Positions 637 to 18,403 of a stretch of DNA of 44,482 nucleotides are shown here, piece after piece. Position numbers and translations under genes: made by a program. Position 1 is the first letter of the stretch; each line of letters begins with the position of its first letter. A model generated the notes under the pieces. It searched no databases, had not been told where the DNA came from, and saw nothing but the letters and a program-made list of their open reading frames with translations. Origin of the DNA: Escherichia phage EcoPhCCP1; sequence record PQ384582.1. The stretch is one strand, 5' to 3'.

Positions 637-690
637 GCGTCTGACCATCAGAGCGCATCAGACGCGCCCTACGCGTCTAAATGGATTATA
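637..690 (-). promoter_or_regulatory. candidate promoter/leader upstream of terS: TATAAT (690-685) plus two overlapping, mutually exclusive dyads
   Basis: Dyads AGACGCG/CGCGTCT (660-666/672-678) and GCGTCTGA/TCAGACGC (637-644/658-665) share the CGCGTCT arm. Confidence 0.3.
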
Positions 691-1804: not shown

Positions 1805-1991
1805 CTTTGTTCAGGTTAAATCGGTTAATCAGTTCACGGCGGCGTTCCATAAGGATGTCTACTTGCCGTAGGTAGCGCTCGATGTTGGCGTCAATCCACG
1901 CTATTTCAGATTCACCAGTAGCGGATTCGACGCTAAGTTTCTCGTATTCGTTGTTGGTCATTTTGTTTCCCCAGTGGCTTTTTGCACGCAA
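1788..1991 (-). CDS. hypothetical protein
   Basis: ORF track; overlaps neighbours by a few codons as in a coupled operon. Confidence 0.4.
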   Translation of the reverse strand: MRAKSHWGNKMTNNEYEKLSVESATGESEIAWIDANIERYLRQVDILMERRRELINRFNLNKGDGNA

Positions 1992-2137
1992 ATAGCATCG
2001 AAACCGCTATAATTTCTATTGAAAATTGCACTTATGCTTTTAGCCGCAGTTTCACACGCATCATGATTAGAAAACTCAGCCGTTGTTACCGCCGGCCCTT
2101 GATATGAGGCAACAATGATAAATAGAATCCATGTCAT
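1958..2137 (-). CDS. small protein with N-terminal signal/TM segment
   Basis: Start taken at ATG 2135-2137 (MTWILFIIVASYQ...), ATGA overlap with upstream ORF; paralog of 4354..4572. Confidence 0.45.
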   Translation of the reverse strand: MTWILFIIVASYQGPAVTTAEFSNHDACETAAKSISAIFNRNYSGFDAICVQKATGETK

Positions 2138-2289
2138 TTCTTCTCTCCCCACATGCGATTGAGATACCTGTTCTTGTCCGGCCCCTGGAAACTGTTACGT
2201 TTCATCAGTTCCTCGCGTGTCGGGAACGGGGTGTGACTGACTTTACGGCCTACGCGTAATGGTTGGCTTACTTGACCTTGTTCGCTCAT
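2134..2289 (-). CDS. hypothetical protein (51 aa, below ORF-track cutoff)
   Basis: Translated by hand: MSEQGQVSQPLRVGRKVSHTPFP...; AGGAGA SD 6 nt upstream; ATGA overlaps at both ends. Confidence 0.4.
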   Translation of the reverse strand: MSEQGQVSQPLRVGRKVSHTPFPTREELMKRNSFQGPDKNRYLNRMWGEKK

Positions 2290-2435
2290 TTCTTCTCTCC
2301 TGCATAAGCTGCTTTCAGTGCCTGCATCGCCGCGGACCAGAACGCGTCCGCAGGAATGCTTCCGCCTAGGTTACTAACGGCAATGCGTACCATCAGTTGT
2401 GCGTCTTCGAATGCTTCGATATCTGTGATTTTCAT
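2286..2435 (-). CDS. hypothetical protein (49 aa, below ORF-track cutoff)
   Basis: Translated by hand: MKITDIEAFEDAQLMVRIAVSNLGG...; stop/start ATGA overlaps with both neighbours. Confidence 0.35.
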   Translation of the reverse strand: MKITDIEAFEDAQLMVRIAVSNLGGSIPADAFWSAAMQALKAAYAGEKK

Positions 2436-2620
2436 TTAACATCTCCATAAAACGCCATAACCTGCTCAACAATAATCTCAAAATCGTCCAGGCTCACATT
2501 AACATTAGCCCATTCGTCACTATCACCGTCGGTGCAAGTTATAAGTAATGAACCATCCCTGCACTTCTCTATCTCCATGAAATCACCCCAGTCATCGGTA
2601 TGTTTAATCTTAGTCATCAT
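2432..2620 (-). CDS. hypothetical acidic protein
   Basis: ORF track; first gene after promoter 2655-2683; GGAG-type SD upstream. Confidence 0.45.
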   Translation of the reverse strand: MMTKIKHTDDWGDFMEIEKCRDGSLLITCTDGDSDEWANVNVSLDDFEIIVEQVMAFYGDVK

Positions 2621-2654
2621 TTCTCTCTACTCCGTTCTCGTTGTCAATGGAGTA

Positions 2655-2683
2655 AATATAATAGGGTCGATGGTAATAGTCAA
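2655..2683 (-). promoter_or_regulatory. sigma70-like promoter TTGACT-N17-TATATT (minus strand)
   Basis: -35 at 2683-2678 and -10 at 2660-2655 on the minus strand, immediately after terminator 2705-2737. Confidence 0.45.
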
Positions 2684-2704
2684 CTAGTCATTACAGAAAA
2701 TAGA

Positions 2705-2737
2705 TAAAAAAAAATCCCGGCTGGGTCAGGGCCGGGA
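2705..2737 (-). terminator. rho-independent terminator ending the lysis cassette
   Basis: Stem TCCCGGC/GCCGGGA (2715-2721/2731-2737) followed on minus strand by a run of 9 T. Confidence 0.7.
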
Positions 2738-2922
2738 TAAAACTGGAGAGCAGAGGGATGGAACAGGAGGTGATTTAAGTATCGTCGGATTAGTCTTAGG
2801 TGTCAACAGAGATTCTCCGGCACGCGTTACCGCACTTTGGCCCGACCTTGTTACAGGTCCGCGAGGGTGATGATACCCGGAGTGCCCTCAATGTTGTTTA
2901 ATCTTCTGTTGCCGTTAGTCTA

Positions 2923-3411
2923 TCAACCTTTAACCGCGCGTCCAATAGCCTCCGCCTCCTGCCACGGTTTGCCGTCGAACAGCGCCAGACGTCCTGCTGT
3001 ACGGCGACGCAGGCCGAGTAATGGCTTGCCATTCTGGTTGATGAACAACGCCAGCTTAGCCCGCAGCGTCGCAATATCGCCAGAACGCAGCGCCTTGCCC
3101 GTGCCAGTAGTAGCCGCAATCACGCCAGCACCCGCGTTATAGACCAGGTCACACACTGCATCGAACTGCGCCTGTGTCAATGAATAGTGTGCTGCCGCAT
3201 CAACCGCAGCTACAGCCTTAGCCATATCGCGATTCAGTAACAGCAAGCCTTGTCCAGGGGTGATGGTCTTACCCGGTGTTACGTCTGGACCGTAATGCCC
3301 GTAGCCTATGGTAAGGTACTTCTCGTTTGATGTAGCGCGGTACGCAGTTCCGCGGAATCCCTCAAACGCGGCACAGAAATGCAATCCATTATCTGAAATG
3401 TTTCGAGACAC
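2923..3411 (-). CDS. endolysin (GH24 T4-type lysozyme)
   Basis: Lysozyme motif FEGFRGTAYR...TIGYGH near the N-terminus; adjacent to holin-like genes. Confidence 0.8.
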   Translation of the reverse strand: MSRNISDNGLHFCAAFEGFRGTAYRATSNEKYLTIGYGHYGPDVTPGKTITPGQGLLLLNRDMAKAVAAVDAAAHYSLTQAQFDAVCDLVYNAGAGVIAATTGTGKALRSGDIATLRAKLALFINQNGKPLLGLRRRTAGRLALFDGKPWQEAEAIGRAVKG

Positions 3412-5423: not shown

Positions 5424-5453
5424 CTCTGTCTCTCCTCTCGTTTGTGTAAATGA

Positions 5454-5482
5454 ATAGTAGCCTATTCTATCTTAGTGTGCAA
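5454..5482 (-). promoter_or_regulatory. phage promoter family member TTGCAC-N17-TACTAT (minus strand)
   Basis: Same architecture as 6830-6858, 29301-29329 and 39188-39216. Confidence 0.5.
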
Positions 5483-5660: not shown

Positions 5661-5794
5661 TGTCGCATCTCCCGCAATAGTCGCTTCGATTGTTTCGTTT
5701 GGTGGAAGTGTCGCTTTTTGACGACACTAATCTAAAGTTGTACGCTGCTGTGTAGCAGCGTAAGTCACTCAGTAAAATCCCAAACTATTGAACA

Positions 5795-6004
5795 TCACAC
5801 TTCCGGCGGCTCGGGTAACGGCATCCAGTGCGTGGGTTTCCACGAAGCCCCAGGAATTAGCCACCCATCATCAGCGTCAGGATGACCGGGGATATAAGTA
5901 GCCCACTTCATCCGCCAATCGCCTTTATGTCCAAACTCTGTAGCTACAAGAACGCCTGTCATTTTCGGCGGCATCCGCTCACTACACTTAATCCACTTAC
6001 ACAT
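5795..6004 (-). CDS. DUF551-like protein
   Basis: MCKWIKCSERMPP...PTHWMPLPEPPEV parallels the N-terminus of 4994..5305. Confidence 0.5.
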   Translation of the reverse strand: MCKWIKCSERMPPKMTGVLVATEFGHKGDWRMKWATYIPGHPDADDGWLIPGASWKPTHWMPLPEPPEV

Positions 6005-6173
6005 ATCTCACACCTCTTTCAATCAAGGATTGCACACCAGCTTTCCACGCCCGCCACGCGAGACGCGTCTTAACGTTCAGGTACTCTTTCTTTGAACCCT
6101 TGTTAACCTGCAGACCCTCGACGACGGCCCACCGTTCAAATGCTTCTCTCAAAATAAAGGTGCGGCTATTCAT
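5997..6173 (-). CDS. hypothetical protein (58 aa, below cutoff)
   Basis: Translated by hand: MNSRTFILREAFERWAVVEGLQVNKG...; start overlaps the stop of 6166..6411. Confidence 0.3.
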   Translation of the reverse strand: MNSRTFILREAFERWAVVEGLQVNKGSKKEYLNVKTRLAWRAWKAGVQSLIERGVRYV

Positions 6174-6804: not shown

Positions 6805-6829
6805 TCCTCTGTCTCGTTTCGATAAGTGA

Positions 6830-6858
6830 ATAGTATCCTATTATGTTGGGGTGTGCAA
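6830..6858 (-). promoter_or_regulatory. phage promoter family member TTGCAC-N17-TACTAT (minus strand)
   Basis: Reverse complement of 6826-6858 matches the 32-bp promoter at 29301 and 39188 with 2 mismatches. Confidence 0.55.
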
Positions 6859-7010: not shown

Positions 7011-7156
7011 ACAATAGACTATGGCCCTTCCGAATGCGCCAGCGAGACTCACTCCACACGTCGAGACGTGCTCGTTTCGCCTGCCGCGCACCGCGGTCGC
7101 TTGTTCATACTTCACAAGCTCAGGTCGAGCTTAGCATATTTCTTAGTAAAAGTCAA
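7011..7156. repeat. non-coding repeat element, copy 1 (paralog of 38980-39121)
   Basis: Direct alignment: about 80% identity overall with a 45-bp near-identical core (CGCGGTCGCTTGTTCATACTTCACAAGCTCAGGT.GAGCTTAGCA). Confidence 0.85.
7128..7156 (-). promoter_or_regulatory. promoter-like module in repeat copy 1: TTGACT-N17(TGn)-TAAGCT (minus strand)
   Basis: -35 TTGACT (7156-7151), 17-nt spacer, extended -10 TGcTAAGCT (to 7128); conserved in copy 2. Confidence 0.4.
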
Positions 7157-7203: not shown

Positions 7204-7232
7204 TTGCTTTTACAAAGTTACCGCCTTATACT
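7204..7232 (+). promoter_or_regulatory. sigma70-like promoter TTGCTT-N17-TATACT for the plus-strand replication operon
   Basis: Hexamers at 7204-7209 and 7227-7232; GGAG SD and ATG 7262 downstream. Confidence 0.4.
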
Positions 7233-7261: not shown

Positions 7262-7432
7262 ATGACTATCAATGAAGTAGCTGAACGTATTGGGGTGACG
7301 CGCCAGACAATTAATAACTGGATTAAGAGTGGAAAGTTTCCTGATTGCAGCGTTAAAGTAATGGGTCGCCGGATGCCGGGGACATTTGACCGTAATAAAG
7401 TTGAAGCGTGGATTAAGGAGAACGTGAAATGA
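7262..7432 (+). CDS. HTH DNA-binding protein (AlpA/Xis/MerR-like)
   Basis: Internal ATG 7262 with GGAG SD; MTINEVAERIGVTRQTINNWIKSGKFP is a typical HTH. Confidence 0.6.
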   Translation: MTINEVAERIGVTRQTINNWIKSGKFPDCSVKVMGRRMPGTFDRNKVEAWIKENVK

Positions 7433-7641
7433 TTGGGTGTATGGGTTGTTACTTTGAAAACGGTAAAGTTAAATACTGGTTTAAGTTTGCGTCAGAAATT
7501 ACCGACAGCGGTTTCTACGCAGAAATATGTAAGCCTAATCATTTGTCGGAACCGACGCGCATTATTAAGATGCCAATCGAGGTGTTAAGTAAATGCCGTT
7601 TCTATACTTCGGAGCGTGCGTGGTTTGCCGGCGATAAATAA
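7429..7641 (+). CDS. hypothetical protein
   Basis: ORF track; ATGA overlap with upstream gene. Confidence 0.45.
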   Translation: MIGCMGCYFENGKVKYWFKFASEITDSGFYAEICKPNHLSEPTRIIKMPIEVLSKCRFYTSERAWFAGDK

Positions 7642-7709
7642 AAGAAACCCCAGCGCCAGAACGTCGGGGTCGAAGCACAAATCATCAAAGTAAGCACAAG
7701 GATTATACA

Positions 7710-7838
7710 ATGACGAAGTTAATAGTTCCACAGCTACGCCGCCAGAAACACGGCGCTGATTTCTTCGCACCGGTAAAGATGAACCGCGCAATGCGCCGTA
7801 TGCAGGAAGCCTTAGAACGTGCGGAGAAAAAGAAATGA
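7710..7838 (+). CDS. hypothetical protein (42 aa, below cutoff)
   Basis: Translated by hand: MTKLIVPQLRRQKHGADFFAPVKMNRAMRRMQEALERAEKKK; AAGGA SD; stop overlaps primase ATG. Confidence 0.4.
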   Translation: MTKLIVPQLRRQKHGADFFAPVKMNRAMRRMQEALERAEKKK

Positions 7839-10096
7839 ATATTGTTTTTGCAGCGCTGCGAAACACATTCGATAAAAACCCGGTAGCGCGTGAAATGCCG
7901 CTGGAGCAGTTCGTAGAGTATGTCTGTGATACGTCGAAGCGTTTATCTGTAGACCCGTCGTGGACTAAGGAAGAGTACGACGCAGCCAAGATTAAGCAGA
8001 AGGCTATCGCACCTGTTGGTGGTCGCCGTAAAAACGCGATTCTGGAAGACAGTGTGGTTAAGTTCGACTTTGACCATCTCAACCGTACTCAGTACCGCGA
8101 CCTGACACGCAAATTCAAGAACGCGCCGTTCTTCAATATTCTGCACACGACGGCGTCGCACCAGCACGCGTGTAAAAACGGTGACTACGCTTTCCGCGTT
8201 CTCGTACCGGCCCGCACGCCGTTTAACTCTAACGACGCGTGGATGGTGCAACGTGCTATTTGTGCTGAGTTAGAAATAGACGAAGCATTGCGCGACCACT
8301 GCACAGAAGATGGCAACCGCCTTATCTACCTGCCGCATAAAGAGTCGAAGATAACGGTTACAGAAGGGCGTGTTATCCGTGCCGAGCGGTACATCAAGAA
8401 AGCCGAAGAGATGGGGCTGCGTAAACGTGAAGCTAAGACGCTTGCTGCCGATGAGCACGGGCTTAACGCAGATATAGCTCATTTCTGCGAAGCCGAGCTG
8501 GGCCTTGACGCTTTATCTTCCGGCCGAGGGTATGAAGTGCCATGCCCTAATGAACATCTGCATACTGGCAAAGGCTCTACCAGCATCATGCTCGATGGTA
8601 AAGAAGTGCGCTTTGTATGCCAGCATACGAACAACGGCGCTTGTACCGAGCTTAACCGTCGGCAACATTTGGCCTTGCGTATGTGCGGCCTGCCCGACGA
8701 GCTTAACGTAGACAAGCAACCTATCAGTATTAACAGCATTCGTGCGGCTTTGCCTGACTTACCTGACGAAGAGATTGAAGAACTGCACCGCACAGAGAAC
8801 GAGGAGCCTGTAACTTGTACGCTGGAAGACCTCGAAGACGAGCCGGAAGTAGAAAAAGAACCTGCTTACTCCGTCGTAGATGGTCTTATGCAGACTAACG
8901 AATCATTCTACATTTGCGCAAAGTCCCACACCGGTAAGTCGACATTTAGTATGGCGATTGACGCCGCCATCACCGCCGAAAAAAGATATGCGTTCGGTGG
9001 CGCTGAGGTCGCAGAAGGTCATGCATTTATCTTCGCAGGCGAAGGTGCACAGTCGTTCGAGAGACATAAAAAATCTTTGCAGATTGCACTTGGCGATAGC
9101 CTCGACCGCTTACACATTATCGATTGTGTTGCTGAGGGGTGTAACTTACTTGACGAAGCGTGGCGACGTAAGGCGGTGAGAATGATGCGCCGTGTTGCCG
9201 GTGAAGAGAGAATTGTAAAGGTTACGTTTGATACCCTGCAAACCTGTATACCTGGCTTCGACGAAAACGACAACAGGTCAATGAAAGAAGCGGCGCAGGC
9301 GCTTAACGAAATAGCGTCTACGCTTAACGCCGCGGTAGGTGCTATGGTGCACCCGACTAAAAACATCGATGAAACTGTACCATCCGAGAACGGCATGATG
9401 CCGAAGGGCGGTAGTGATTTTCACAACTCCATCGATAACGGGATGTTCCTGCATAAACCAGACAACGACAATAACTTAGAGATAAACCTGTATCACATAA
9501 AGAACCGAAACGGAGAACGGCAGAAAGCCAGAGGATTCGTAATACAGAAGATTCAGATAGCGGAGCCACCGGAAAAGAAAGAACCAACTCACAACTTCAT
9601 GGGACTCCCGGAAGGGTACAGTAGTGACGATGTACGAGATTTTGACGCAGGAAATCCGCACATCGATGTCTTTGTTAACTTTAACGCCTTCTCTGTCTTC
9701 GTGAAGAAAGTAGAAGGTATGACCGACGAACAGAAGGAAGCCGTTAAAGAAAAAGTAGGCCAGTTCGAGAAACTGGACACCAAAGAGGCTACGGTTATTT
9801 ACGCATTAGGTAAATTGCAGGAGCAGGGCGACGACAAGCGAGGGTTTTCTATGTCCGCTATCGTCAAAGCGGCGAAAGAAGATAGTTACGGCGTACCGAT
9901 TAACGCTAATAACGACCTTCGAAAAAAACTGGAAGAGATGCACGAGGCGGGGGTTATCGTCTCGGGTCTGGATAACAACAACAGACCTATCCCTAAGCAA
10001 TACAGGTTGCCGTGGGGCATAAACGACAACAAGATTCCTAAGACAATATACGAACAGAATGAAATGCTTACAGTGACCGAGGAAGATTTGGAATAG
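7835..10096 (+). CDS. DNA primase/helicase (AEP-like primase N-domain, zinc-binding segment, P-loop NTPase C-domain)
   Basis: FDFDH and SHQH primase-like motifs, Cys/His cluster (CPNEHLHTG...CQHTNNGAC), Walker A AKSHTGKST. Confidence 0.7.
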   Translation: MNIVFAALRNTFDKNPVAREMPLEQFVEYVCDTSKRLSVDPSWTKEEYDAAKIKQKAIAPVGGRRKNAILEDSVVKFDFDHLNRTQYRDLTRKFKNAPFFNILHTTASHQHACKNGDYAFRVLVPARTPFNSNDAWMVQRAICAELEIDEALRDHCTEDGNRLIYLPHKESKITVTEGRVIRAERYIKKAEEMGLRKREAKTLAADEHGLNADIAHFCEAELGLDALSSGRGYEVPCPNEHLHTGKGSTSIMLDGKEVRFVCQHTNNGACTELNRRQHLALRMCGLPDELNVDKQPISINSIRAALPDLPDEEIEELHRTENEEPVTCTLEDLEDEPEVEKEPAYSVVDGLMQTNESFYICAKSHTGKSTFSMAIDAAITAEKRYAFGGAEVAEGHAFIFAGEGAQSFERHKKSLQIALGDSLDRLHIIDCVAEGCNLLDEAWRRKAVRMMRRVAGEERIVKVTFDTLQTCIPGFDENDNRSMKEAAQALNEIASTLNAAVGAMVHPTKNIDETVPSENGMMPKGGSDFHNSIDNGMFLHKPDNDNNLEINLYHIKNRNGERQKARGFVIQKIQIAEPPEKKEPTHNFMGLPEGYSSDDVRDFDAGNPHIDVFVNFNAFSVFVKKVEGMTDEQKEAVKEKVGQFEKLDTKEATVIYALGKLQEQGDDKRGFSMSAIVKAAKEDSYGVPINANNDLRKKLEEMHEAGVIVSGLDNNNRPIPKQYRLPWGINDNKIPKTIYEQNEMLTVTEEDLE

Positions 10097-10121
10097 GTAA
10101 AAAGAAAGGGGCGTTAAGCCC
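10097..10121 (-). terminator. rho-independent terminator (minus strand) at the end of the XRE gene
   Basis: GGGGC-GTTAA-GCCCC hairpin (10107-10121) followed on minus strand by TTTCTTTTTT. Confidence 0.5.
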
Positions 10122-10329
10122 CTTCACCGAACGCCAGCCACTTGGCGTCTACTTCCAGCACTTCTGCCAGTTTAAACAGCGTCGCCGGGCGGACATCCTG
10201 AGTTACACCGAGTGCCAGTTGGTTAATCGCGCCCTGGGAAACCCCAGCCAGAACAGCCAGACGGCGCTGGGAGATGCCGAGTTCTTTACGGCGTTGTTCT
10301 ACACGGATGCCTAGTTCAGATGGTTGCAT
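10114..10329 (-). CDS. XRE-family HTH transcriptional regulator (Cro/CI-like)
   Basis: LGISQRRLAVLAGVSQGAINQL is a classic XRE HTH; gene is antiparallel to the flanking replication genes. Confidence 0.75.
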   Translation of the reverse strand: MQPSELGIRVEQRRKELGISQRRLAVLAGVSQGAINQLALGVTQDVRPATLFKLAEVLEVDAKWLAFGEGA

Positions 10330-10393
10330 GTCAATTACTCCTTAGTCAGTTGATATGTGAATAGTACCATATTAATTATTTTAGGAAAGCCCA

Positions 10394-10423
10394 TTGACAT
10401 CATGAATAGTTAGCTATTATAGT
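10394..10423 (+). promoter_or_regulatory. sigma70-like promoter TTGACA-N18-TATAGT with AATAG-N4-CTATT dyad in the spacer
   Basis: Spacer TGAATAGTTAGCTATTATAGTT is identical to 13465-13486; back-to-back with the XRE promoter region. Confidence 0.55.
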
Positions 10424-10455
10424 TAGCACATACCAAACGAGAGGAGAGAAACAAA

Positions 10456-10632
10456 ATGGCTAAACGTAAAGATTATGATGCTAACTGGAAAGTGTGGTTT
10501 CCCAACGTCATCCTAGAAGGACGTGGGGATGTTGAAGGTATGATTACTCAGGCATTCCGTTTCTTACCCGAAAACATGCAGAAAGACATTCTTAAAGAAC
10601 TTAACAATATCGCCGAACAGGAGAACAAATAA
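10456..10632 (+). CDS. hypothetical protein (58 aa, below cutoff)
   Basis: Translated by hand: MAKRKDYDANWKVWFPNVILEGRGDVEGM...; GAGAGGAGAG SD; TAATG junction with next gene. Confidence 0.45.
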   Translation: MAKRKDYDANWKVWFPNVILEGRGDVEGMITQAFRFLPENMQKDILKELNNIAEQENK

Positions 10633-11159
10633 TGTTAGAGAAATTCTTAGTATTACTGGAACGTTTCGTAGTTGCGCATGAACTGATTGCTGCGAACAGT
10701 GTGAAACAACCGACTAATAAATCTGTAGGTGAATTGACCGTTGACGTCGCGGTAACGGGGGTAGAGACAGTTAAAAAAGAACTGGCTAAAGCACTTGAAG
10801 AAGTCGAGAAGGCGAAAGAAATCCCGGTTGAAGGTGAAGACGTCGTTGACACTAAACCGGCAGAAGATGAGAAGCCGAAACGCAAGCCTGGCAAATCAAA
10901 ACCAGCCCCTAAACCTGTAGAGGAACCAACACCGGAGCCGGAAGAAGAAGTCGATTACCAGTCTCTGCGTGACCAGATTCAGGCTATCGACGATGCGATT
11001 AACGAAGGTCCGAGCGATGCCGCGTGCGACGATTCCGATGAACTACTGGAAGAGTTCACCGGTAAGAAAATGAAGATTGCCGCGATTAAAGACGAAGACC
11101 TGGTTGAATATCTGGAACTCCTCACGGCAATCAAGAACAAGTATTTCGAAGAAGAATAA
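10632..11159 (+). CDS. acidic Pro/Glu/Lys-rich protein (hypothetical)
   Basis: ORF track; strongly acidic low-complexity central region (KPAPKPVEEPTPEPEEE). Confidence 0.5.
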   Translation: MLEKFLVLLERFVVAHELIAANSVKQPTNKSVGELTVDVAVTGVETVKKELAKALEEVEKAKEIPVEGEDVVDTKPAEDEKPKRKPGKSKPAPKPVEEPTPEPEEEVDYQSLRDQIQAIDDAINEGPSDAACDDSDELLEEFTGKKMKIAAIKDEDLVEYLELLTAIKNKYFEEE

Positions 11160-11172
11160 CTACTTAACTTAT

Positions 11173-11196
11173 GTTGCCCTCATACGTGAGGGCAAC
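11173..11196 (+). other. perfect 10-bp stem-loop GTTGCCCTCA-TACG-TGAGGGCAAC
   Basis: Read directly; no U-tract on either strand; lies just 5' of the SD (TGAGGGTCGG) of the next gene. Confidence 0.8.
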
Positions 11197-11214
11197 AAAC
11201 TGAGGGTCGGAATT

Positions 11215-11487
11215 ATGATTTACCAACTCTACCGAGCCGTAGACAGGCGGGATAGCACAGAGGCGTTATGGCTGTTGCGCGCGCCGTCCGGTGCGCACCA
11301 GATGGAAGAGATGGCGTACTTAGGCAAAGTACCACGGCCTAAAGATATAGGCCGTCACGTGTCGCAGATTAAGCGCACGACTTTCGCCAAGCCTGACTTT
11401 TATGTCTTCGAGTCGATGTATGGGTGGGCTATGCACTGCGAACATAAGACACGGCATTTAATTGACCAGTGGGAGAACAGGGTATGA
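11215..11487 (+). CDS. hypothetical protein
   Basis: Internal ATG 11215 with GAGGG SD, in frame with track ORF 11077..11487. Confidence 0.45.
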   Translation: MIYQLYRAVDRRDSTEALWLLRAPSGAHQMEEMAYLGKVPRPKDIGRHVSQIKRTTFAKPDFYVFESMYGWAMHCEHKTRHLIDQWENRV

Positions 11488-11981
11488 ATTGGCATGAAGT
11501 TTTTGACTACGACCCCGCTACAGGTAAATTATTTTGGAAAATAAGTCCGTCAAAATCTGTAAAAATAGGGCAAGAAGCTGGCAGTACGAGGGCGGACAAC
11601 GACGGGAGTGAATTTAAAATACTACGTTTTAACGGGACTACTAAACTTATCCACCACGTAGTTTGGGAGATGTTTAACGGGCCGATAGCGCCTGGGGAAG
11701 TAATTCGTCATAAAAATAAAGATAGAACTGATAACAGAATAGAAAATCTTATAAAAATGCGTCGGGGCAGTATCGCACACGGCACCAGCATACGGACGGA
11801 CAATACTTCAGGGGTTAAAGGTGTTGGGTTTCATAAACGCTATGGTAAGTGGGTCGCAAGAATTTATGTAGACGGCAGGCCGATTTATTTAGGGGCTTAC
11901 GATAAGTTAGAGAACGCGGCTAAGGCTCGCAGGCAAGCCGAGATTAAATACGGGTTTACAGTTAACGGAGCTGAGAAATGA
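11484..11981 (+). CDS. HNH homing endonuclease with AP2 DNA-binding domain
   Basis: HH...N...DNRIENL HNH core and AP2-like KGVGFHKRYGKWVARIYVDGRPIYLGAYDKLENAAKA. Confidence 0.75.
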   Translation: MNWHEVFDYDPATGKLFWKISPSKSVKIGQEAGSTRADNDGSEFKILRFNGTTKLIHHVVWEMFNGPIAPGEVIRHKNKDRTDNRIENLIKMRRGSIAHGTSIRTDNTSGVKGVGFHKRYGKWVARIYVDGRPIYLGAYDKLENAAKARRQAEIKYGFTVNGAEK

Positions 11982-13228
11982 TTCTAAAAGAACGCGGCGG
12001 CAATAATGACGTACACGCCTTACTGTCGCCGTCAGGTGCTAAAAAGTGGCTAAGCTGCGCCGCGTCACTGGCCTGTGAAAAAGATATTCCTAACACGTCA
12101 GGTAAAGCCGCGGTATTAGGCACAGCTATGCATACAATAGCCGAGGTCCATTTAAATCAGTACATCAAAGGCACTGCGCTGCCGTTAGAACGTGAAGTTG
12201 GCGCTTACGTGCTGGATGGGGGTAAAGGTCAGATTAAGGCGCTAATCAGCCCGATTAAAGGCGCGGTACTGATTACGGCGGATATGATTGAGCAGGTGCG
12301 TAAGTACACCGACTACTGCAAACCGATTATCGATGTAGCGACTTACGCCAAGCTCGAGATGCGCGTCAATCTTACTGAGGTATTGCATCCTGGCTACGAA
12401 GGTGTCGAGACGTTCGGAACTGCTGACCTTGTTGCCGTACAGGAACTGGCAAACACTGACGAGCACATGTTAATTATCGGCGACCTGAAAACTGGGCGGC
12501 ATCGTATCGAAGCGAAAGAAAACAAGCAGCTTATGCTCTATGCTCTCGGTGTTTATCGCCGACTCAAGAGACGTTATAACATCGCAGTTGTTCGTCTGGT
12601 CATCTTCCAGCCGTACGCTGGCGGGGCGTCGGAGTGGGACATCTCGGTTGAAGGTCTGGAACTGTTCGCTAAGTTCGCACAGAAACGTGCACTGTTGGCT
12701 CTTGATGCCTATTTCCGCGGTAAGAAGAACCTGAAAGCGTCGGACTTCAAGCCGTCTGTCGATGGTTGTCAGTGGTGCCGGTTCTCTGAACAGTGTGCTG
12801 CGCGTACAAAAACCGTTAACGCGGTACTGGCGGAAGAGCTGGAGGACGACTTTGCACTGGAACTGACGCCGGAGCAACTCGTAACTGAGTATGAGAAGCT
12901 GCCGTTGTTGCGCCAGCACATAGACAAGGTTGAGAAAGCGATGGCCGCCGCATTGCATTCAGGTAAGAAAGTGCCAGGGTACAAGCTGGTTGAAGGCCGT
13001 CCTGGTAATCGTGCGTGGAAAGACTCCGATGCGATTGAAGTGTCACACGGCGACATTCTCAAAAAAGAGGTATTGATGTCGCCCACGGAGGCAGCAAAAG
13101 TTCTTTCGGCGGACGAGATGGCAGCGCTTGAGCCGTTTATCACGCGTAAGCCGGGCGCACCATGTGTCGCATCGGCAGACGACAAGCGTCCTGAGTGGAA
13201 TCAGGTAACAGAGGAGGATTTAGAATGA
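11978..13228 (+). CDS. PD-(D/E)XK nuclease, Cas4/DUF2800-like
   Basis: N-terminal HALLSPSGAKKWLSCAAS, DLKTG motif and C-terminal Cys cluster (C.WCRF...C). Confidence 0.65.
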   Translation: MILKERGGNNDVHALLSPSGAKKWLSCAASLACEKDIPNTSGKAAVLGTAMHTIAEVHLNQYIKGTALPLEREVGAYVLDGGKGQIKALISPIKGAVLITADMIEQVRKYTDYCKPIIDVATYAKLEMRVNLTEVLHPGYEGVETFGTADLVAVQELANTDEHMLIIGDLKTGRHRIEAKENKQLMLYALGVYRRLKRRYNIAVVRLVIFQPYAGGASEWDISVEGLELFAKFAQKRALLALDAYFRGKKNLKASDFKPSVDGCQWCRFSEQCAARTKTVNAVLAEELEDDFALELTPEQLVTEYEKLPLLRQHIDKVEKAMAAALHSGKKVPGYKLVEGRPGNRAWKDSDAIEVSHGDILKKEVLMSPTEAAKVLSADEMAALEPFITRKPGAPCVASADDKRPEWNQVTEEDLE

Positions 13229-13461
13229 TTCGTAAAATGTTCAGAGTAATTGGCGGTTTTGTGGCGTTTTTAAGCTATCACTTTATGATGTTGCCGGTTT
13301 ATTCTTTGCTTTTTCCATTAATGGCTTATATTGCGGTTAAGTATAAAACTGTAGACCTGGAAGACTTAATGGAAGTTAATGAGATAAAGTTTGTTCAGAA
13401 TTTGGAGTGGCCTTTCGAATACGTACTGATAGTTGAGAAAATAACTGGCTGGAAGGGTTGA
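13225..13461 (+). CDS. small membrane protein
   Basis: Internal ATG 13225 with GGAGGA SD and ATGA overlap; two hydrophobic segments. Confidence 0.4.
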   Translation: MIRKMFRVIGGFVAFLSYHFMMLPVYSLLFPLMAYIAVKYKTVDLEDLMEVNEIKFVQNLEWPFEYVLIVEKITGWKG

Positions 13462-13486
13462 CACCTGAATAGTTAGCTATTATAGT
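13458..13486 (+). promoter_or_regulatory. sigma70-like promoter TTGACA-N17-TATAGT with AATAG-N4-CTATT dyad
   Basis: Consensus -35 at 13458-13463 and -10 at 13481-13486; spacer shared with the 10394 promoter. Confidence 0.6.
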
Positions 13487-13545
13487 TCTAATCACTGGCC
13501 GGGCAGCTTCCCGGAGTAAACGAAACTTAAAAGCGAGAAATCACG

Positions 13546-14175
13546 ATGGGCATTAAACTGAATCTGCGTAAAGTAAACACTGCTTGGGTTAATGTATTCG
13601 AACGTGCTGCCGACTCTGAGGACAAGAAAACCGGTAAACTGATTAAGGGTAAATATCAGGTTACTGTTCTTATGCAGCCCGACCACCCTCAAATCGACGC
13701 GCTTTACGACACAGCGCTAGAAGTTGTAACAGAGGCAATCGGGACCGCCGCCGCTGAAAAATGGATGAAGGCCAACTACGGCGAAGACCACCATGCAGAT
13801 AAATGCTGCGTCCGTGACCTGGCAATGCGCGACAACCCGATTGAGGATTTTGAAGAAGGTCTGTATTTCCGCGCTACTAACAACCGCCAACCGGTAATTA
13901 TGACCTCGGCTAAAGGCGAAAAACAAACCGAGCCTGATTTCAACATCGACGGGCAGGAAGTAGAAGGCGAGCAGGTATATAGCGGGTGCGTAGCAAACGT
14001 ATCTGTAGAGTTATGGTGGCACAAAGAATGGAAAAACCTGTGCGCCACCATCCTCGGCATCAAGTATGCTGGTGAAGGTAAACGCTTCGGCGGCTCCAGT
14101 GTAGTAGCGAGCACCGACGACCTGGAAGACGACGAAGAAGATGGAGCACCGCGCCGTGAACGCCGCCGTCGCTAA
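13546..14175 (+). CDS. ssDNA-binding protein (DUF2815-like)
   Basis: Sits between the DUF2800-like nuclease and the DNA polymerase; acidic C-terminal tail DDLEDDEEDG. Confidence 0.55.
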   Translation: MGIKLNLRKVNTAWVNVFERAADSEDKKTGKLIKGKYQVTVLMQPDHPQIDALYDTALEVVTEAIGTAAAEKWMKANYGEDHHADKCCVRDLAMRDNPIEDFEEGLYFRATNNRQPVIMTSAKGEKQTEPDFNIDGQEVEGEQVYSGCVANVSVELWWHKEWKNLCATILGIKYAGEGKRFGGSSVVASTDDLEDDEEDGAPRRERRRR

Positions 14176-14195
14176 TATCTGAATCAATTTAACTA

Positions 14196-14217
14196 AGGCC
14201 CTTCATTGGGCCTTTTT
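14196..14217 (+). terminator. terminator/attenuator hairpin between the SSB and polymerase genes
   Basis: AGGCCC-TTCATT-GGGCCT followed by TTTTT. Confidence 0.5.
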
Positions 14218-14234
14218 ACTAAGGGTCGAAAATA

Positions 14235-16436
14235 ATGAGTTACCTGTTCTTAGACTTTGAAACATTCTCCGAAGCTGATTTAAAGAAAGTCGGTTCCTAC
14301 GCTTACGCTGAACATCCAACTACCGAAGTGCTAATCTGTACCTATGCTTTTGACGACGAGCCTGTGCAGGTGTGGGATTGCACCGACGGCAGCGACATGC
14401 CTGGCGATTTGCACCGCGCGTTACGCCGTCTGGTTAAACCGAACAGCCGCATCAAGATGGTGTGGCACAACGGCTCAATGTTCGACCGCCTCATCATGAA
14501 ACACTGCTGGGGTTTTGATATTCCGGTAAGCAACACCATTGATACGATGATTTGGGCGTTCCGCCACGCGCTGCCGGGTTCACTTGATGCATTGTGCGAA
14601 GTGCTGGGTGTATCCGCAGATAATGCGAAAGATAAACGCGGCAAGGCGCTGATTCAGCGTTTCTCTAAACCCACTCCGAAGAACTACAAAATCCGCCGCT
14701 ACACCGCCGAGACGCACCCTGGCGAGTGGGCGCTGTTCATCAAGTACGCCGTGAGTGACATAACTGCGATGCGTGAAGTTTTCCATAAGCTACCGCGGTG
14801 GGGTAACTCTGAGTTCGAAGACCGTGTACTGGAACTGGACCAGTTAATCAATGACCGCGGGTTTAAGGTTGACGTTGCACTGGCGGAAGCCGCAATTGAA
14901 GCCGTGGAAAAACACAAAGCGCAGTTACAGGAAGAAGCCCAGCGCAAATACGGCGGCTCTCTTACTGGTAAAGACTTCCTGCCAATTCTACGCGAACTGG
15001 CTCCTGCGCACCGTATTCATAACGCACAGAAGTCTACGCTTAACGACCTGCTGGCGGACGATGATTTACCTGACGACGCCCGCGCGATTATAGAAATGCG
15101 CCTCGGGGCCGCATCCACCGCATCAACGAAATATAACCCGCTGTTGTTAGGCCGCTCTTCGGACGACCGCCGTCGAGGGTGTTTACAGTATGGCGGGGCA
15201 AAACGTACTCTGCGATGGGCGGGTAAAGGCTTCCAGCCGCAGAACCTGGCGCGCGGGTACTATCACGATGATGAACTGGATAAAGGCATTTCAGCGTTAC
15301 TTAAGGGCCGCGCGCACCGCCGTTTTGATGTCGCTAAATTAACGGCATCGACGGTGCGTAGCTGCATCATACCGGAAGCAGGACATAAGTTTGTTGTTGC
15401 CGATTATTCTAACGTCGAAGGTCGCGGTTTAGCGTGGCTGGCCGGTGAAGAAACCGCGCTCGATACGTTCCGCGCTGGCCTTGATATTTACTGCGTAACC
15501 GCGGGTAAGATGTTCGGCATGGACCCAGATGATATTAAGAAAAACTTCAAGGAAATCAGACAGATAGGCAAGGCTTGCGAACTGGGCCTCGGTTATGAGG
15601 GGGGTGTCGGAGCGTTCGTTACGTTCGCCAAAAACTTAGGCCTAGACCTTATTGAGATGGCAAAAACAATGGACGGGACTTTCCCCGACCACATCTGGGC
15701 TGCTACCGCACGTGGGTATGAGTGGGCGCGTATTCAGGAAGCCAAGCGACCGCCACATCCCGGTGAAAAGGATGACCGACCATCGTATATTCTTGATAAG
15801 AAAGTGTGGCGCACATGTGACGCTATCAAGCGTATGTGGCGTGAGTCTCACCCTGAAACAGTAGCGTTCTGGCGAGACCTTAAAGATGGAATTTTAGCCG
15901 CTGTTCGCAATCCTGGTCGTGAATTTTGGGCAGGAGCACACTTGCGCAAGAATGGTGAAAGGGCTATCCGCATATGGCGTACTGTTGAATTTGATTCGTC
16001 CGGTAGGAAGGTTCCTGGTTGGTGGTTGTGTATGGAGTTGCCGTCGGGTCGTATCCTCTCGTATCCGGGGATCGGCGTTAGCGTGACAAAGGAAACAGAC
16101 GAAGACGGACGGGTAAACACGAATGTGCGAATCAAGTACCAAGGCGAAAACCAGTTAACCCGCCAATGGACTACCCTGTACACACACGGTGGCAAAGCCT
16201 GCGAAAACATTGTCCAGGCGCTGTGCCGTGATTTACTCGCGTATGCGATGATTAATGTTGAGGGTGGCGGGTATCCAATCGTGCTTTCGGTACACGATGA
16301 ACTGGTATGTGAAACTCCAGACACCCCCGAGTATACGGTGGCTGAACTGGAAAAATTAATGTGTTCGCTGCCTGAGTGGGCCGAGGGGTTCCCTCTTGTA
16401 GCGGAAGGTCAGGAGTTAAAACGTTATGCTAAGTAA
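14235..16436 (+). CDS. DNA polymerase, family A, with 3'-5' exonuclease domain
   Basis: Exo motif LDFETFS; Pol A motif A VADYSNVEGR, motif B RQIGKACELGLGYEGG, motif C VHDE. Confidence 0.9.
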   Translation: MSYLFLDFETFSEADLKKVGSYAYAEHPTTEVLICTYAFDDEPVQVWDCTDGSDMPGDLHRALRRLVKPNSRIKMVWHNGSMFDRLIMKHCWGFDIPVSNTIDTMIWAFRHALPGSLDALCEVLGVSADNAKDKRGKALIQRFSKPTPKNYKIRRYTAETHPGEWALFIKYAVSDITAMREVFHKLPRWGNSEFEDRVLELDQLINDRGFKVDVALAEAAIEAVEKHKAQLQEEAQRKYGGSLTGKDFLPILRELAPAHRIHNAQKSTLNDLLADDDLPDDARAIIEMRLGAASTASTKYNPLLLGRSSDDRRRGCLQYGGAKRTLRWAGKGFQPQNLARGYYHDDELDKGISALLKGRAHRRFDVAKLTASTVRSCIIPEAGHKFVVADYSNVEGRGLAWLAGEETALDTFRAGLDIYCVTAGKMFGMDPDDIKKNFKEIRQIGKACELGLGYEGGVGAFVTFAKNLGLDLIEMAKTMDGTFPDHIWAATARGYEWARIQEAKRPPHPGEKDDRPSYILDKKVWRTCDAIKRMWRESHPETVAFWRDLKDGILAAVRNPGREFWAGAHLRKNGERAIRIWRTVEFDSSGRKVPGWWLCMELPSGRILSYPGIGVSVTKETDEDGRVNTNVRIKYQGENQLTRQWTTLYTHGGKACENIVQALCRDLLAYAMINVEGGGYPIVLSVHDELVCETPDTPEYTVAELEKLMCSLPEWAEGFPLVAEGQELKRYAK

Positions 16437-16557
16437 ACTGATTATCGCGGTACTGGCAGGATTTGCCGCCGGTGTCTACTGTCACGAGGGTCAATACGGC
16501 ATGATTGTCGCCGTGTTAGGCATGTTCATCGCAATTTATCTGTGGGTGCTGGAATGA
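16426..16557 (+). CDS. small membrane protein (43 aa, below cutoff)
   Basis: Translated by hand: MLSKLIIAVLAGFAAGVYCHEGQYGMIVAVLGMFIAIYLWVLE; ATGA overlap downstream. Confidence 0.35.
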   Translation: MLSKLIIAVLAGFAAGVYCHEGQYGMIVAVLGMFIAIYLWVLE

Positions 16558-16643
16558 AAATCTACTGGTTCTACGAAGAAGACTGTCGAATCTGTCCGCG
16601 CTGCGGGATTGAGCATACAAAACGAGAGTGGTGCGTATTATGA
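16554..16643 (+). CDS. small Cys-rich protein (29 aa, below cutoff)
   Basis: Translated by hand: MKIYWFYEEDCRICPRCGIEHTKREWCVL; ATGA overlaps on both sides. Confidence 0.3.
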   Translation: MKIYWFYEEDCRICPRCGIEHTKREWCVL

Positions 16644-16831
16644 AAGAAGAATGTTTTAGCAACACCAAAGCGTTAGTAGATATGCCGGAGTGGGAATTTA
16701 TCATGGTAATGGGCGATGGGTTCTTTAGCGATGCTTGCACCGGGTGTACGCACAAAGGTGTTTACTATTCAGAACACGACATCTATCAAGCGTACTTCCT
16801 GCGAAACCCAGATGCGGAGCCGTTGTTATGA
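16640..16831 (+). CDS. hypothetical protein
   Basis: Internal ATG 16640 in frame with track ORF 16628..16831; ATGA coupling. Confidence 0.4.
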   Translation: MKEECFSNTKALVDMPEWEFIMVMGDGFFSDACTGCTHKGVYYSEHDIYQAYFLRNPDAEPLL

Positions 16832-16980
16832 CAATGTTTGTATTTTGGACGATAGTAACCATGCTCGCACTGTTACTCGGCGCTGGAATAGCTGCGATGT
16901 TCTGTTATGGCCTGTTCTTTAAGTTTTTCGGTGTTGCCGTTCTCGGTGGAGCTTTCCTTACTTGGATTCTGCGGTCGTGA
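16828..16980 (+). CDS. small membrane protein
   Basis: ATG 16828 (MTMFVFWTIVTMLALLLGAGIAAMF...), two hydrophobic segments. Confidence 0.4.
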   Translation: MTMFVFWTIVTMLALLLGAGIAAMFCYGLFFKFFGVAVLGGAFLTWILRS

Positions 16981-17261
16981 CTAAAGAGGGCCGCGTACAG
17001 AAATACGCAAAAGAGCGATTCGAGGCCATTGGCGGCCTCGTTCGTAAACTGTCTTATGAGGGGCGTTCCGGCGCCCCTGACCTGCTGGTAATTCTCCCCG
17101 GGGGCATCGTCTGGTTCGTCGAGGTGAAGAAAGACGAAAACACGAAGCCAGACCCGCACCAGTTACGGGAACACGGGCGGATGCGTAAACGCGGTGCAAA
17201 TGTTTTTGTCGTTGGTTCGTTTAAACAGGTTGACGACCTAATAGCGAACTATTATAGTTAA
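16962..17261 (+). CDS. VRR-NUC domain nuclease
   Basis: PDLLVILPGG...VWFVEVKK matches the VRR-NUC (PD-(D/E)XK) pattern; non-ATG start (TTG 16962 or GTG 16977). Confidence 0.6.
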   Translation: MDSAVVTKEGRVQKYAKERFEAIGGLVRKLSYEGRSGAPDLLVILPGGIVWFVEVKKDENTKPDPHQLREHGRMRKRGANVFVVGSFKQVDDLIANYYS

Positions 17262-17291
17262 GCACACACCAACAATATAAGGAATTGAGAA

Positions 17292-17483
17292 ATGAAACAC
17301 GAATATGATCGCAAACCAGCACGTGACATCGTACCTGGCGACATGATTTTCAACGTTAAGACTCGCCGTCCTGTTGCCGTTGATACGGTGTTCGTCGAGT
17401 CGAACGGTAAACTGGTTATCGAAGATGTAACGGGAAACGTTACGGCGTTCGGGCGTAAAGAGTTAGTTCTGGTGCTGAAATGA
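17292..17483 (+). CDS. hypothetical protein
   Basis: ORF track; ATGA overlap with the methyltransferase start. Confidence 0.45.
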   Translation: MKHEYDRKPARDIVPGDMIFNVKTRRPVAVDTVFVESNGKLVIEDVTGNVTAFGRKELVLVLK

Positions 17484-18403
17484 ACTATTACAACGAATGG
17501 GATAAAGGCGCAGCCGCGTGGCTGCGCGAATTAATAAAACAGGGTCTCATACCTTTTGGAGTTGTAGATGAAAGAAGCATTACCGAAATTAGACCAGAAG
17601 ACCTTGACGGGTTCACCCAGTGTCATTTTTTCGCTGGTATCGGCGGCTGGCCTCTCGCGCTCAGACTTGCGGGAGTTTCGGAAGATACGCCTCTCTGGAC
17701 GGGAAGCCCGCCTTGCCAACCGTTTAGCGCGGCAGGAAAACAACTCGGACAGTTCGACCCGAGACACCTCGCGCCAGTCTTCCTCGACCTCATCAGCGAG
17801 TGCCGCCCTCCAGTCCTCTTTGGGGAACAGGTTGCGCCAGCAATTGCAAAATCGTGGATGTGCGATTTACAAACTCACCTGGAAGGAGAAGACTACGCCG
17901 TCGGGTTTGCCGTACTCCCAGCTTGTGGCGTCGGCGCACCGCATAAAAGAGAGCGACTCTTCTTTGGTGCGTACCAACTGGCCGACACCGACAGCGAACG
18001 ATTACAAAGGGAGCGGAGAGACAGTGATTCGCAAGGACGGGAAGGACAGAACATTCGACAGGCTGGACTACTCAACGGAGCAGGGACTGAAAGCGGCATG
18101 GGGGACGCCGACGGTTCAGAATTCGCGTCACGGCAGCTACAGCGAGGCGGAAACAAAAAGAGACCCGAACAATCTGCACAATCAATGCTACCTCGTGGTG
18201 GCAATCCGAATCGCAGCTTCTGGTCGGATGCTGACTGGCTCGGATGCCGTGACGGAAAATTTAGGCCAGTTGAACCCGGCACATTCCCGCTGGCTAATGG
18301 GATACCCGCCAGAGTGGGACGATTGCGCGGTTACGGCAATGCTATCGTCCCGCAAGTAGCTGCCGAATTTATAAAGGCGTTTATGGGGGCCATAAATGAG
18401 TAA
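17480..18403 (+). CDS. DNA (cytosine-5)-methyltransferase, apparently frameshifted
   Basis: Frame of 17480: motif I FAGIGG, IV PPCQPFS, VIII HKRERLFF, X GYGNAIVPQVA; frame of 17568: WPTPTANDYKGSG, WGTPT and LNPAHSRWLMGYPPEWDD. Confidence 0.7.
   Translation: MNYYNEWDKGAAAWLRELIKQGLIPFGVVDERSITEIRPEDLDGFTQCHFFAGIGGWPLALRLAGVSEDTPLWTGSPPCQPFSAAGKQLGQFDPRHLAPVFLDLISECRPPVLFGEQVAPAIAKSWMCDLQTHLEGEDYAVGFAVLPACGVGAPHKRERLFFGAYQLADTDSERLQRERRDSDSQGREGQNIRQAGLLNGAGTESGMGDADGSEFASRQLQRGGNKKRPEQSAQSMLPRGGNPNRSFWSDADWLGCRDGKFRPVEPGTFPLANGIPARVGRLRGYGNAIVPQVAAEFIKAFMGAINE

Follow-up and report, generated by a model that had tools for sequence, protein, structure and literature searches.

What is a Cro-like regulator doing in a phage that has no visible integrase? 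The question is raised by Escherichia phage EcoPhCCP1 (PQ384582.1), whose sequence of 44,482 bp we analyzed over its full length (hereafter the window), and by a small gene for an XRE/434-Cro-like regulator on its minus strand (10114–10329; hereafter the XRE gene, with XRE as its product). An earlier interpretation of the letters alone, to which we refer as the sequence-only reading, had described the locus as a Cro/CI-like regulator with back-to-back overlapping promoters in the geometry of a lambda-like PR/PRM switch, and had offered early/middle timing or a pseudolysogenic state as its role. From the evidence set out below we lean towards a different kind of circuit: XRE is probably an orphan Cro-type repressor, which would autoregulate and turn down early and middle promoters genome-wide by way of a short palindrome.

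A functional, single-domain regulator of the Cro type

The open reading frame (ORF) of the XRE gene starts with ATG, is preceded by the ribosome-binding site (RBS) AAGGAG at 10343–10338 and encodes 71 amino acids (aa) with a single HTH_3 domain. By tblastn, the gene was found in 501 phage records, with identities of at least 95% in Kagunavirus, ~51% in Jerseyvirus and ~41–43% in the Cornellvirus VSiP and phage St162. Purifying selection is evident from 35 unique orthologous DNA sequences, in which 82 codon variants are synonymous and 31 nonsynonymous (random change would be expected to yield ~27% synonymous variants), and the recognition helix is nearly without amino-acid change in the same set. 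We conclude that the XRE gene is real and functional. It has nevertheless gone unannotated in the RefSeq entry of Raoultella phage RP180 (NC_048181.1), the closest of 452 phage records matching the 7-kb region around the gene (91% identity): an intact XRE ORF of 98.6% identity lies there at 34870–35085, in a 358-bp 'gap' between gp41 and gp42.

To which family does the protein belong? XRE matches Pfam HTH_3 (E-value 2.3e-12; 47.2 bits versus a cut-off of 23) as well as PHROG transcriptional-regulator families, and its top sequence match in the PDB is phage 434 Cro, also 71 aa long (E-value 5e-7, residues 6–68), followed by the DNA-binding domain of 434 repressor and by P22 c2. The AlphaFold model consists of five helices (5–17, 21–28, 32–39, 48–57 and 62–66) with a mean predicted local distance difference test (pLDDT) value of 80. 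Its Foldseek neighbors are SinR-N, 434 repressor and Cro, controller proteins of restriction-modification systems, HipB and P22 c2, with a probability of 1.00 for 434 Cro, 434 repressor, P22 c2 and SinR-N; the comparison with 434 Cro and repressor gives 36–41% identity and a template modeling (TM) score of ~0.75. Neither a C-terminal oligomerization domain nor an S24 peptidase domain was found in the 71 aa, to which only helix-turn-helix (HTH) families match, and this single domain without a C-terminal part makes XRE Cro-like rather than CI-like. The assignment to the Cro/CI group thus holds, with 434 Cro as the best solved relative. A Gln that is invariant in the XRE alignment aligns with Q28 of 434 Cro, a residue that touches operator base 1. 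Proteins in the Cro position of the temperate lambdoid phages RothC and CobraSix, whose genes lie opposite cI and ahead of cII, are 39–45% identical to XRE.

Two copies of a palindrome between divergent promoters

The intergenic region upstream of the XRE gene contains two copies of the element GTGAATAGT...TATTA, the core of which is the 14-bp palindrome AATAG-N4-CTATT. The left operator candidate (AATAGTACCATATT, 10360–10373) has one mismatch and overlaps the -10 of the XRE promoter; the right operator candidate (AATAGTTAGCTATT, 10405–10418) is perfect and fills the spacer of a rightward promoter. Their centers are 45 bp apart.

This rightward promoter (10394–10423, plus strand) comprises TTGACA at 10394–10399, an 18-nt spacer and TATAGT at 10418–10423. 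It agrees with the consensus at 11 of 12 positions, was the top match in a 3-kb promoter scan, and has an equivalent annotated in phage PVP-SE2; under it stand a 58-aa ORF, a 175-aa gene, HNH and exonuclease genes and further genes. The scan overall was barely above chance (7 sites versus 3.8 ± 1.8), and we judge the local promoters to be real because they are conserved. Conservation was assessed in 39 unique Kagunavirus intergenic sequences, drawn from 38 IMG/VR loci and GenBank relatives (hereafter the 39 relatives), in which the rightward promoter shows essentially no variation in either hexamer. On the opposite strand, the core of the XRE promoter, TGgTACTAT (10361–10369, minus strand; TG at 10369–10368), is kept in 39/39 relatives, and the region 17 nt upstream of this -10, where a leftward -35 would fall, varies among them. 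An invariant TG and TACTAT together with a variable -35 region indicate that the XRE promoter is of the extended -10 type.

How does the described promoter geometry fare? The TACTAT hexamer does lie at 10366–10361 on the minus strand, as the sequence-only reading had it, and the two promoters are indeed divergent and back to back. They do not overlap, however, as the predicted start sites are ~76 bp apart, and the -35 that had been implied for the leftward promoter is unconserved. A weak promoter-like match on the plus strand over the left site (TTGATA at 10350, AATTAT at 10374) was dropped, its -35 being unconserved as well.

The palindrome recurs at promoters across the genome

Is the palindrome confined to this intergenic region? 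Allowing up to one mismatch, it occurs 12 times in the window versus 1.04 expected, a count that 0 of 100 shuffles reached. We also enumerated palindromes without bias towards any sequence, taking all 5-mer half-sites with spacers of 0–8. The same element outnumbered every other perfect palindrome in each of three genomes, with 7 copies in the window, 8 in RP180 and 4 in Jersey, where it is extended to TAATAG-N4-CTATTA; the other recurrent palindromes were terminator stems only. When one mismatch was allowed, the enumeration was swamped by GC-rich half-sites of coding sequences, which leaves the perfect-palindrome count as the useful statistic. Jersey has 6 matches to the 16-mer versus 0.12 expected. 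The tally for the window is 7 perfect and 2–3 plausible one-mismatch copies; the one-mismatch copies at 6663 and 23065, inside ORFs, are probably due to chance, about one such match being expected.

The palindrome overlaps the -35, spacer or -10 of ~9 sigma-70-type promoters. All perfect copies coincide with core elements of promoter-like sequences, each of which is shortly followed by an RBS and start codon. The palindrome takes three registers against the polymerase hexamers, as it may cover the -35, lie in the spacer or cover the -10, a placement that RNA polymerase contacts or promoter function alone cannot explain. In type A promoters, TTGACA is followed after 4 or 5 nt by the palindrome and then by TATAGT. 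They lie at 10394, 13458 and 17230, all rightward and serving replication genes: apart from the copy beside the XRE gene, the palindrome occupies the spacer at 13468–13481 (TTGACA 13458/TATAGT), upstream of the single-stranded DNA-binding protein and DNA polymerase genes, and at 17240–17253 (TTGACG 17230/TATAGT), upstream of a 63-aa gene, a methylase and an SNF2 helicase. Type B promoters have the form TTGCACA-CCCCAAyAT-AATAGGnTACTATT-CA, in which TACTAT within the right half-site is the -10; two of them, at 6829 and 5453, point leftward and two, at 29317 and 39204, rightward. The leftward copies cover the -10 of the first promoter of the leftward early genes (6829–6842; TTGCACA...TACTAT) and of a promoter upstream of small genes leading towards the lysis cassette (5453–5466). 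Of the rightward ones, that at 29317–29330 covers the -10 before the genes for a superinfection-immunity homologue, an exonuclease, a polynucleotide kinase (PNK) and an ATPase, and that at 39204–39217 lies within the leftward head-gene cluster, with a promoter at 39188 that is identical to the one at 29301 over 32 nt. A copy with one mismatch at 2675–2688, just after a terminator, covers the -35 (TTGACT) of a leftward promoter, and its Jersey orthologue is annotated as a promoter.

Some of these promoters have surroundings worth recording. The first gene after the 29317 palindrome (29361–29552) encodes the 63-aa 'immunity to superinfection' homologue (phrog_1039, E-value 1.5e-22) and is followed by genes for the metallophosphatase-type exonuclease, a PNK-phosphatase and the ATPase. 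About 200 nt downstream of the 39188 promoter, a hairpin with T-runs on both sides (39389–39417) resembles a two-way terminator, so that the transcript would be short; it could carry a 41-aa ORF (39266–39391) or act as a small or antisense RNA. A 112-aa ORF without family match (39364–39702) overlaps the minus-strand gene for an immunoglobulin (Ig)-domain protein. Just before the 39204 promoter, 38980–39121 is a direct repeat of 7012–7156 (~145 bp, 87% identity), the latter belonging to the extended early control region ahead of the gene for the HTH_17 protein discussed below; the repeat holds a promoter-like stretch, TTCACA...CATATT, with an AGCTC-N5-GAGCT inverted repeat in its spacer, and is also present in RP180. 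In RP180, gp06 (5783–6136) spans a type B promoter and may be a wrong-strand call.

Half-sites are conserved while centers vary

The right site has the same TG-AATAG and CTATT throughout the 39 relatives, a center that takes six forms (TTAG, TTCG, TTCA, TTTG, CTCG and CTAG), and a linker to the -35 that varies in length and sequence. The half-sites of the left site are invariant as well, with a center that is variable at one position. At the orthologous promoters of Jersey, the half-sites are kept and the centers differ, for example in AATAGTTAACTATT before the DUF2815/polymerase operon and in AATAGAGTACGATT beside the XRE gene; the flanking intergenic DNA is too diverged for blastn. As a sequence pattern, invariant half-sites with variable centers are the classic footprint of a dimeric repressor operator, which makes the palindrome a strong candidate for one. 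VSiP, whose XRE is 43% identical, has related elements of the form ATTAG-N4-sTAWT at equivalent promoters, including the -10 of its XRE gene. In Kagunavirus, Jerseyvirus and Cornellvirus alike, it is the site over XRE's own promoter that is degenerate. This is the usual arrangement for autoregulation, and we count it in favor of autoregulation here.

A proposed role in turning down early and middle promoters

How might these elements work together? On infection, all sigma-70 promoters would fire, and XRE, made from its weak extended -10 promoter, would accumulate. An XRE dimer would then bind the 14-bp palindromes and turn down first the rightward promoter with its perfect site and then, at the imperfect site, its own synthesis. 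The ~7 further palindrome promoters would be turned down too, namely those of the leftward early, DNA polymerase, methylase-helicase and exonuclease/superinfection-immunity operons, and the HTH_17/helicase-primase operon, which has no site, would escape XRE control and continue. The role of XRE would be a genome-wide turn-down of early/middle transcription and not a lysis-lysogeny decision. Lambda Cro, likewise, turns down PL and PR during lytic growth. We infer each part of this scheme, that is, XRE as the binder of AATAG-N4-CTATT, repression upon binding and the role in timing, from sequence comparison. Repression is the expected outcome since the palindromes cover the -35, spacer or -10 of near-consensus promoters, and promoter occlusion is a well-known basis for it.

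The choice of XRE as the likely binder follows from its relatives and from the position of its gene. Members of its clade use 14-bp two-fold sites starting with A: three 14-bp palindromes lie in the cI-cro intergenic region, with the sequence ACAA-N6-TTGT in RothC and ACAG-N6-CTGT in CobraSix. The XRE gene is flanked by two sites, of which the strong one lies on the opposing promoter and the weak one on the promoter of the gene itself. Finally, VSiP keeps related elements without a detectable HTH_17 homologue; tblastn found none in VSiP, and a scan of ten small VSiP ORFs gave no HTH domain. Among host regulators, the ArgR, Cra and LexA boxes do not, to our knowledge, fit the palindrome.

Several observations weigh against this model. 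In the only transcriptome available, RNA-seq data of the Kagunavirus vB_Eco_K1B4 (PMC12645636), the orthologue of XRE is named among the 'middle' genes; this orthologue, K1B4_004, we recognized from its size, its strand and the 17 bp that separate it from the helicase-primase gene. The study further classes DNA polymerase and methylase genes as 'late' and structural genes as 'middle', which does not fit a simple early shut-off. Its classes are defined by peak time over 120 min and look unreliable, and we take them neither as support for the model nor as a clear refutation. As the sites that served to derive the VSiP motif are also those on which it was counted, its enrichment figure is partly circular. 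The palindrome sits in a ~23-bp cassette with -10-like hexamers on both strands and could have spread in part by promoter duplication. A further difficulty lies in the comparison of half-sites and recognition helices across the three genera. The half-site of VSiP, AWTAS, departs from AATAG only slightly, and Kagunavirus and Jerseyvirus share the same operator with four differences in the recognition helix; between these two genera XRE is 51% identical, and HTH_17 77%. Taken at face value, simple co-variation of protein and site would, if anything, favor HTH_17.

No apparatus for lysogeny

Could the locus nevertheless belong to a lysis-lysogeny switch? We detected no recombinase domain in any ORF of at least 157 aa, and no integrase is annotated in RP180, Jersey or VSiP, in line with the earlier impression of a phage without integrase. 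The sequence-only reading had suggested searching any missing flanking sequence for one. The small terminase gene lies at the window start and the large terminase gene extends to the window end; therefore no flank is missing, and the window is the complete, circularly permuted genome of a Kagunavirus-type siphophage (Guernseyvirinae), which leaves no flank to search. Domains of the cI type or for partition were likewise not found in ORFs of at least 157 aa. On the divergent side of XRE there is no cI-type partner: the 58-aa ORF and the 175-aa protein have no HTH, and no such partner is annotated in relatives. The proposed lambda-type PR/PRM switch thus does not hold, as the locus lacks a cI partner, has, in place of three adjacent sites, two with 45 bp between their centers and shares its site with ~7 other promoters. 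The latter points to a genome-wide regulon instead of a local bistable switch.

Bacterial genomes gave a matching picture. A search of 5,426 complete E. coli genomes gave no match to the XRE region, and among 185,579 species-representative genomes there was no close homologue of the XRE protein. All XRE homologue clusters come from phage-sized contigs (≤45.3 kb), in a large protein search that returned close relatives only (at least 78% identity) and says nothing on distant family members. One plasmid record stands out, the only match among 72,556: 'plasmid pC16EC0033-2' in PLSDB (CP088689.1; 44,086 bp, circular, from a human blood E. coli isolate) proved to be a complete Kagunavirus genome, and its replication region shares ~89% identity with that of the window. 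Either a carrier culture or simple co-assembly might lie behind this record.

Alternative explanations

If XRE does not read the palindrome, what does? It might be the true operator of another protein, likeliest HTH_17 (MerR/excisionase type, 56 aa, phrog_66; 7262–7432, plus strand), the first gene of the helicase-primase operon, which would switch those promoters on or off; XRE would then be one HTH_17 target, with its own target elsewhere. We hold this to be possible, though rather unlikely. HTH_17 heads an operon whose own promoter, TTGCTT-N17-TATACT (7204–7232, plus strand; TATACT at 7227), carries no palindrome and has hexamers conserved out to Jersey around an unconserved spacer. Its K1B4 orthologue, K1B4_008, is one of only four 'early' genes, whereas that of XRE is 'middle' (PMC12645636), and the protein (89% identical in RP180) is better conserved than XRE between genera sharing the operator, at 77% versus 51% in Jersey. 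HTH_17 matches 'excisionase and transcriptional regulator' families through its HTH only, and a 56-aa HTH of the MerR/excisionase type without a dimerization region would be an atypical binder of a 14-bp two-fold-symmetric site, whereas members of the XRE clade use exactly such sites. VSiP has no detectable HTH_17 homologue, yet related palindromic elements stand at the same promoter positions, and type A promoters, at 10–11 of 12 consensus positions, should need no activator. The palindrome might also have no reader at all and be the by-product of a copied mobile bidirectional promoter cassette (~23–32 bp, with -10 hexamers on both strands), leaving XRE to act elsewhere, e.g. on the host or competing phages, or to be a relic. 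Stretches of 32 nt (29301 and 39188 copies) and 22 nt (two type A copies) are identical between copies, the -10 of type B promoters (TACTAT) lies inside the right half-site, and the Golestan PHIRE work listed the same 20-mers merely as 'conserved promoter sequences'. We nonetheless find it unlikely that copying is the whole story: the type A palindrome lies wholly in the spacer, where sigma-70 does not read it, and keeps invariant half-sites in the 39 relatives while the center and upstream linker vary. The half-sites outlast alignable flanks between genera, the site takes three registers relative to the hexamers, and XRE shows strong purifying selection and hardly any change in its recognition helix.

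A third possibility accepts XRE as the reader and changes its purpose. As an immunity repressor, XRE might hold the phage in a non-integrated, plasmid-like carrier (pseudolysogenic) state, silencing it almost fully with the HTH_17/helicase-primase operon left on; pC16EC0033-2 would then be a case of such an integrase-less carrier state. That record does have an intact XRE gene and all eight palindromes, and with sites at nearly all non-structural promoters, silencing could be near-global and yet leave the helicase-primase promoter free. We consider this very improbable, however. The record is equally explained by co-assembly of a contaminating or co-cultured lytic phage, and it is the sole match of the host-genome and plasmid searches, with none in the E. 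coli set. No long repressor of the cI type, partition system, integrase or anti-repressor circuit was found in the genome. Papers on the genus describe clear lytic behavior, and we found no report of a carrier state in the literature. If true, it would mean a carrier state in phages whose family is regarded as strictly lytic and has been widely suggested for therapy. Between the two roles that the sequence-only reading had left side by side, the evidence favors timing, and pseudolysogeny finds almost no support.

Terminator and gene neighborhood

The gene order of the window is that of RP180, K1H, Jersey and their relatives, and the XRE gene is, as had been noted, the sole minus-strand gene of the plus-strand replication module, which is true for 7262–19820. 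In Kagunavirus and Jerseyvirus, the helicase-primase gene on the plus strand (ending at 10096 in the window) is convergent with it. Between the two lies an intrinsic terminator of the XRE gene (10097–10125, minus strand) with a 7-bp GC-rich hairpin (10106–10112/10118–10124). It overlaps the stop codon of the gene, as previously described: the hairpin loop contains the TAA at 10116–10114. The hairpin leads into UCUUUUU on the minus strand and into no U-tract on the plus strand, so that it looks like a one-way terminator. Transcripts of the helicase-primase gene may accordingly read through into the XRE gene in antisense. An equivalent terminator is annotated in phages Snoke and PVP-SE2.

On the other side, the slot directly after the rightward promoter is variable. 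In the window it holds the 58-aa ORF (10456–10632, plus strand; MAKRKDYD...), the first gene 3' of the promoter, which matches no Pfam or PHROG family and is found in few relatives (EC3-1, L019 and L030). Unrelated small ORFs (MTNNRK..., MNIITGA...) fill the slot in other relatives. The 58-aa ORF is absent from most, where the promoter leads straight to the 175-aa gene. Promoter, operator candidate and RBS remain constant around this variable slot.

Elsewhere in the window, positions 111–187 and 188–264 form an exact 77-bp tandem duplication in the 3' end of the small-terminase ORF (113–658, minus strand), adjoining the point where the window is cut through the start of the large terminase. 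As 77 is not a multiple of 3, the duplication causes a frameshift. It may be an artefact of assembly at the genome ends, or it may be a genuine feature near the packaging site. A 217-aa ORF on the plus strand (41067–41720), with a weak KilA-N match (E-value 3e-4, below the Pfam cut-off), sits amid a minus-strand cluster between the portal and head-morphogenesis genes. Relatives have other opposite-strand inserts at comparable places, for instance an amidase and a homing endonuclease in Jersey.

Earlier annotation and implications

Parts of this system have been seen before under other names. In GenBank, the XRE gene is labeled 'transcriptional repressor', 'Cro', 'DicA' or 'hypothetical'. Genome papers on these phages pass over the gene or name it 'repressor', 'Cro' or 'DicA', and divergent promoters had, like the terminator, already been predicted in the PVP-SE2 record. 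The paper on phage 590B lists a 'transcriptional repressor DicA' and then states, as a safety argument, that the genome is without a repressor gene (PMC9787291), which shows how confused the status of the gene is in the applied literature. The palindrome promoters, in turn, appear in the PHIRE table of the Golestan paper, where seven 20-mers are given as 'conserved promoter sequences', including TAATAGGGTACTATTCA..., TAATAGCGAACTATTCACAT and TAATATGGTACTATTCACAT. These are the same elements as described here, two of them 'before ORF48', in the XRE intergenic region. In the literature we found no paper that reads elements of the Golestan type as a palindromic operator set for XRE.

What is new here is the genome-wide set of palindromic operator candidates in a phage family that is obligately lytic. 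In kind it is no surprise: multi-site regulons are as well known as Cro-type repressors. Its interest lies partly in the phages that carry it, as Guernseyvirinae (Kagunavirus, Jerseyvirus) rank with those that are most frequently isolated and put forward for therapy and biocontrol of E. coli and Salmonella. If XRE is an orphan Cro-type timing regulator without lysogeny apparatus, a recurring safety worry would be removed. The map of 14-bp operator candidates offers a concrete and cheaply testable model of gene scheduling in a lytic siphophage that depends on host RNA polymerase, and the palindrome promoters together with one regulator could provide a ready repressible set for engineering these phages.

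Comparison with known systems

Finally, we would like to set this locus beside regulatory systems to which it bears some likeness. With the lambda immunity region it shares back-to-back divergent promoters with a Cro-type gene on one side and recombination and replication genes on the other, but it has no cI, cII, integrase, att site, tripartite operator or sign of bistability. The likeness is closer in VSiP (34477–37128) and St162 (1492–3207), where XRE comes first in a cro-then-replication operon, co-directional with and upstream of the helicase/primase. In Kagunavirus and Jerseyvirus, in contrast, the helicase-primase gene lies on the other strand, is convergent with XRE and belongs to an operon headed by HTH_17. 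Virulent cos-type Streptococcus thermophilus phages (Sfi19/DT1) have kept a Cro-side regulator and divergent early promoters without cI or integrase, and their close temperate siblings show the deletion. We found no temperate sibling among Guernseyvirinae by tblastn or in the 5,426 E. coli and 185,579 species genomes, and we know of no genome-wide operator set described for phages of the Sfi19/DT1 type.

For many sites read by one small protein, the obvious comparison is mycobacteriophage L5, whose repressor gp71 controls most transcription units through many genome-wide 'stoperator' sites. These are asymmetric 13-mers oriented with transcription, many of them inside operons, where they stop elongation, and L5 is temperate and has an integrase. 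The present genomes resemble L5 in holding many copies of one short site (8 each in RP180 and pC16EC0033-2) and differ in that the sites are palindromic and lie on core promoters. Closer to XRE in fold, and among its top structural matches, are the controller proteins of restriction-modification systems (C.AhdI, C.BclI), which are small XRE-fold dimers that act as timing devices through palindromic boxes over their own promoters. The XRE gene, in contrast, is unlinked to a restriction-modification pair, and its identity to these proteins (23–28%) is lower than to 434 Cro.

The nearest counterpart is thus 434 itself, with differences that mark how far the two circuits stand apart. The half-site is AATAG around a 4-bp center here and ACAA around a 6-bp center in 434, and the recognition helix reads SQGAINQLA in XRE and KQQSIQLIE in 434 Cro. 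In place of a cI partner and three adjacent sites in a temperate phage, there are two sites 45 bp apart and ~7 other promoters in a phage that is not temperate. What the two have in common is the protein and its setting: XRE has the same length (71 aa), the same five-helix fold and the same single domain as 434 Cro, its gene likewise lies beside divergent promoters, and its candidate operator, with 14 bp, two-fold symmetry and A as the first base, resembles the 434 operator sequence ACAA-N6-TTGT, a pattern that we also observed in RothC.

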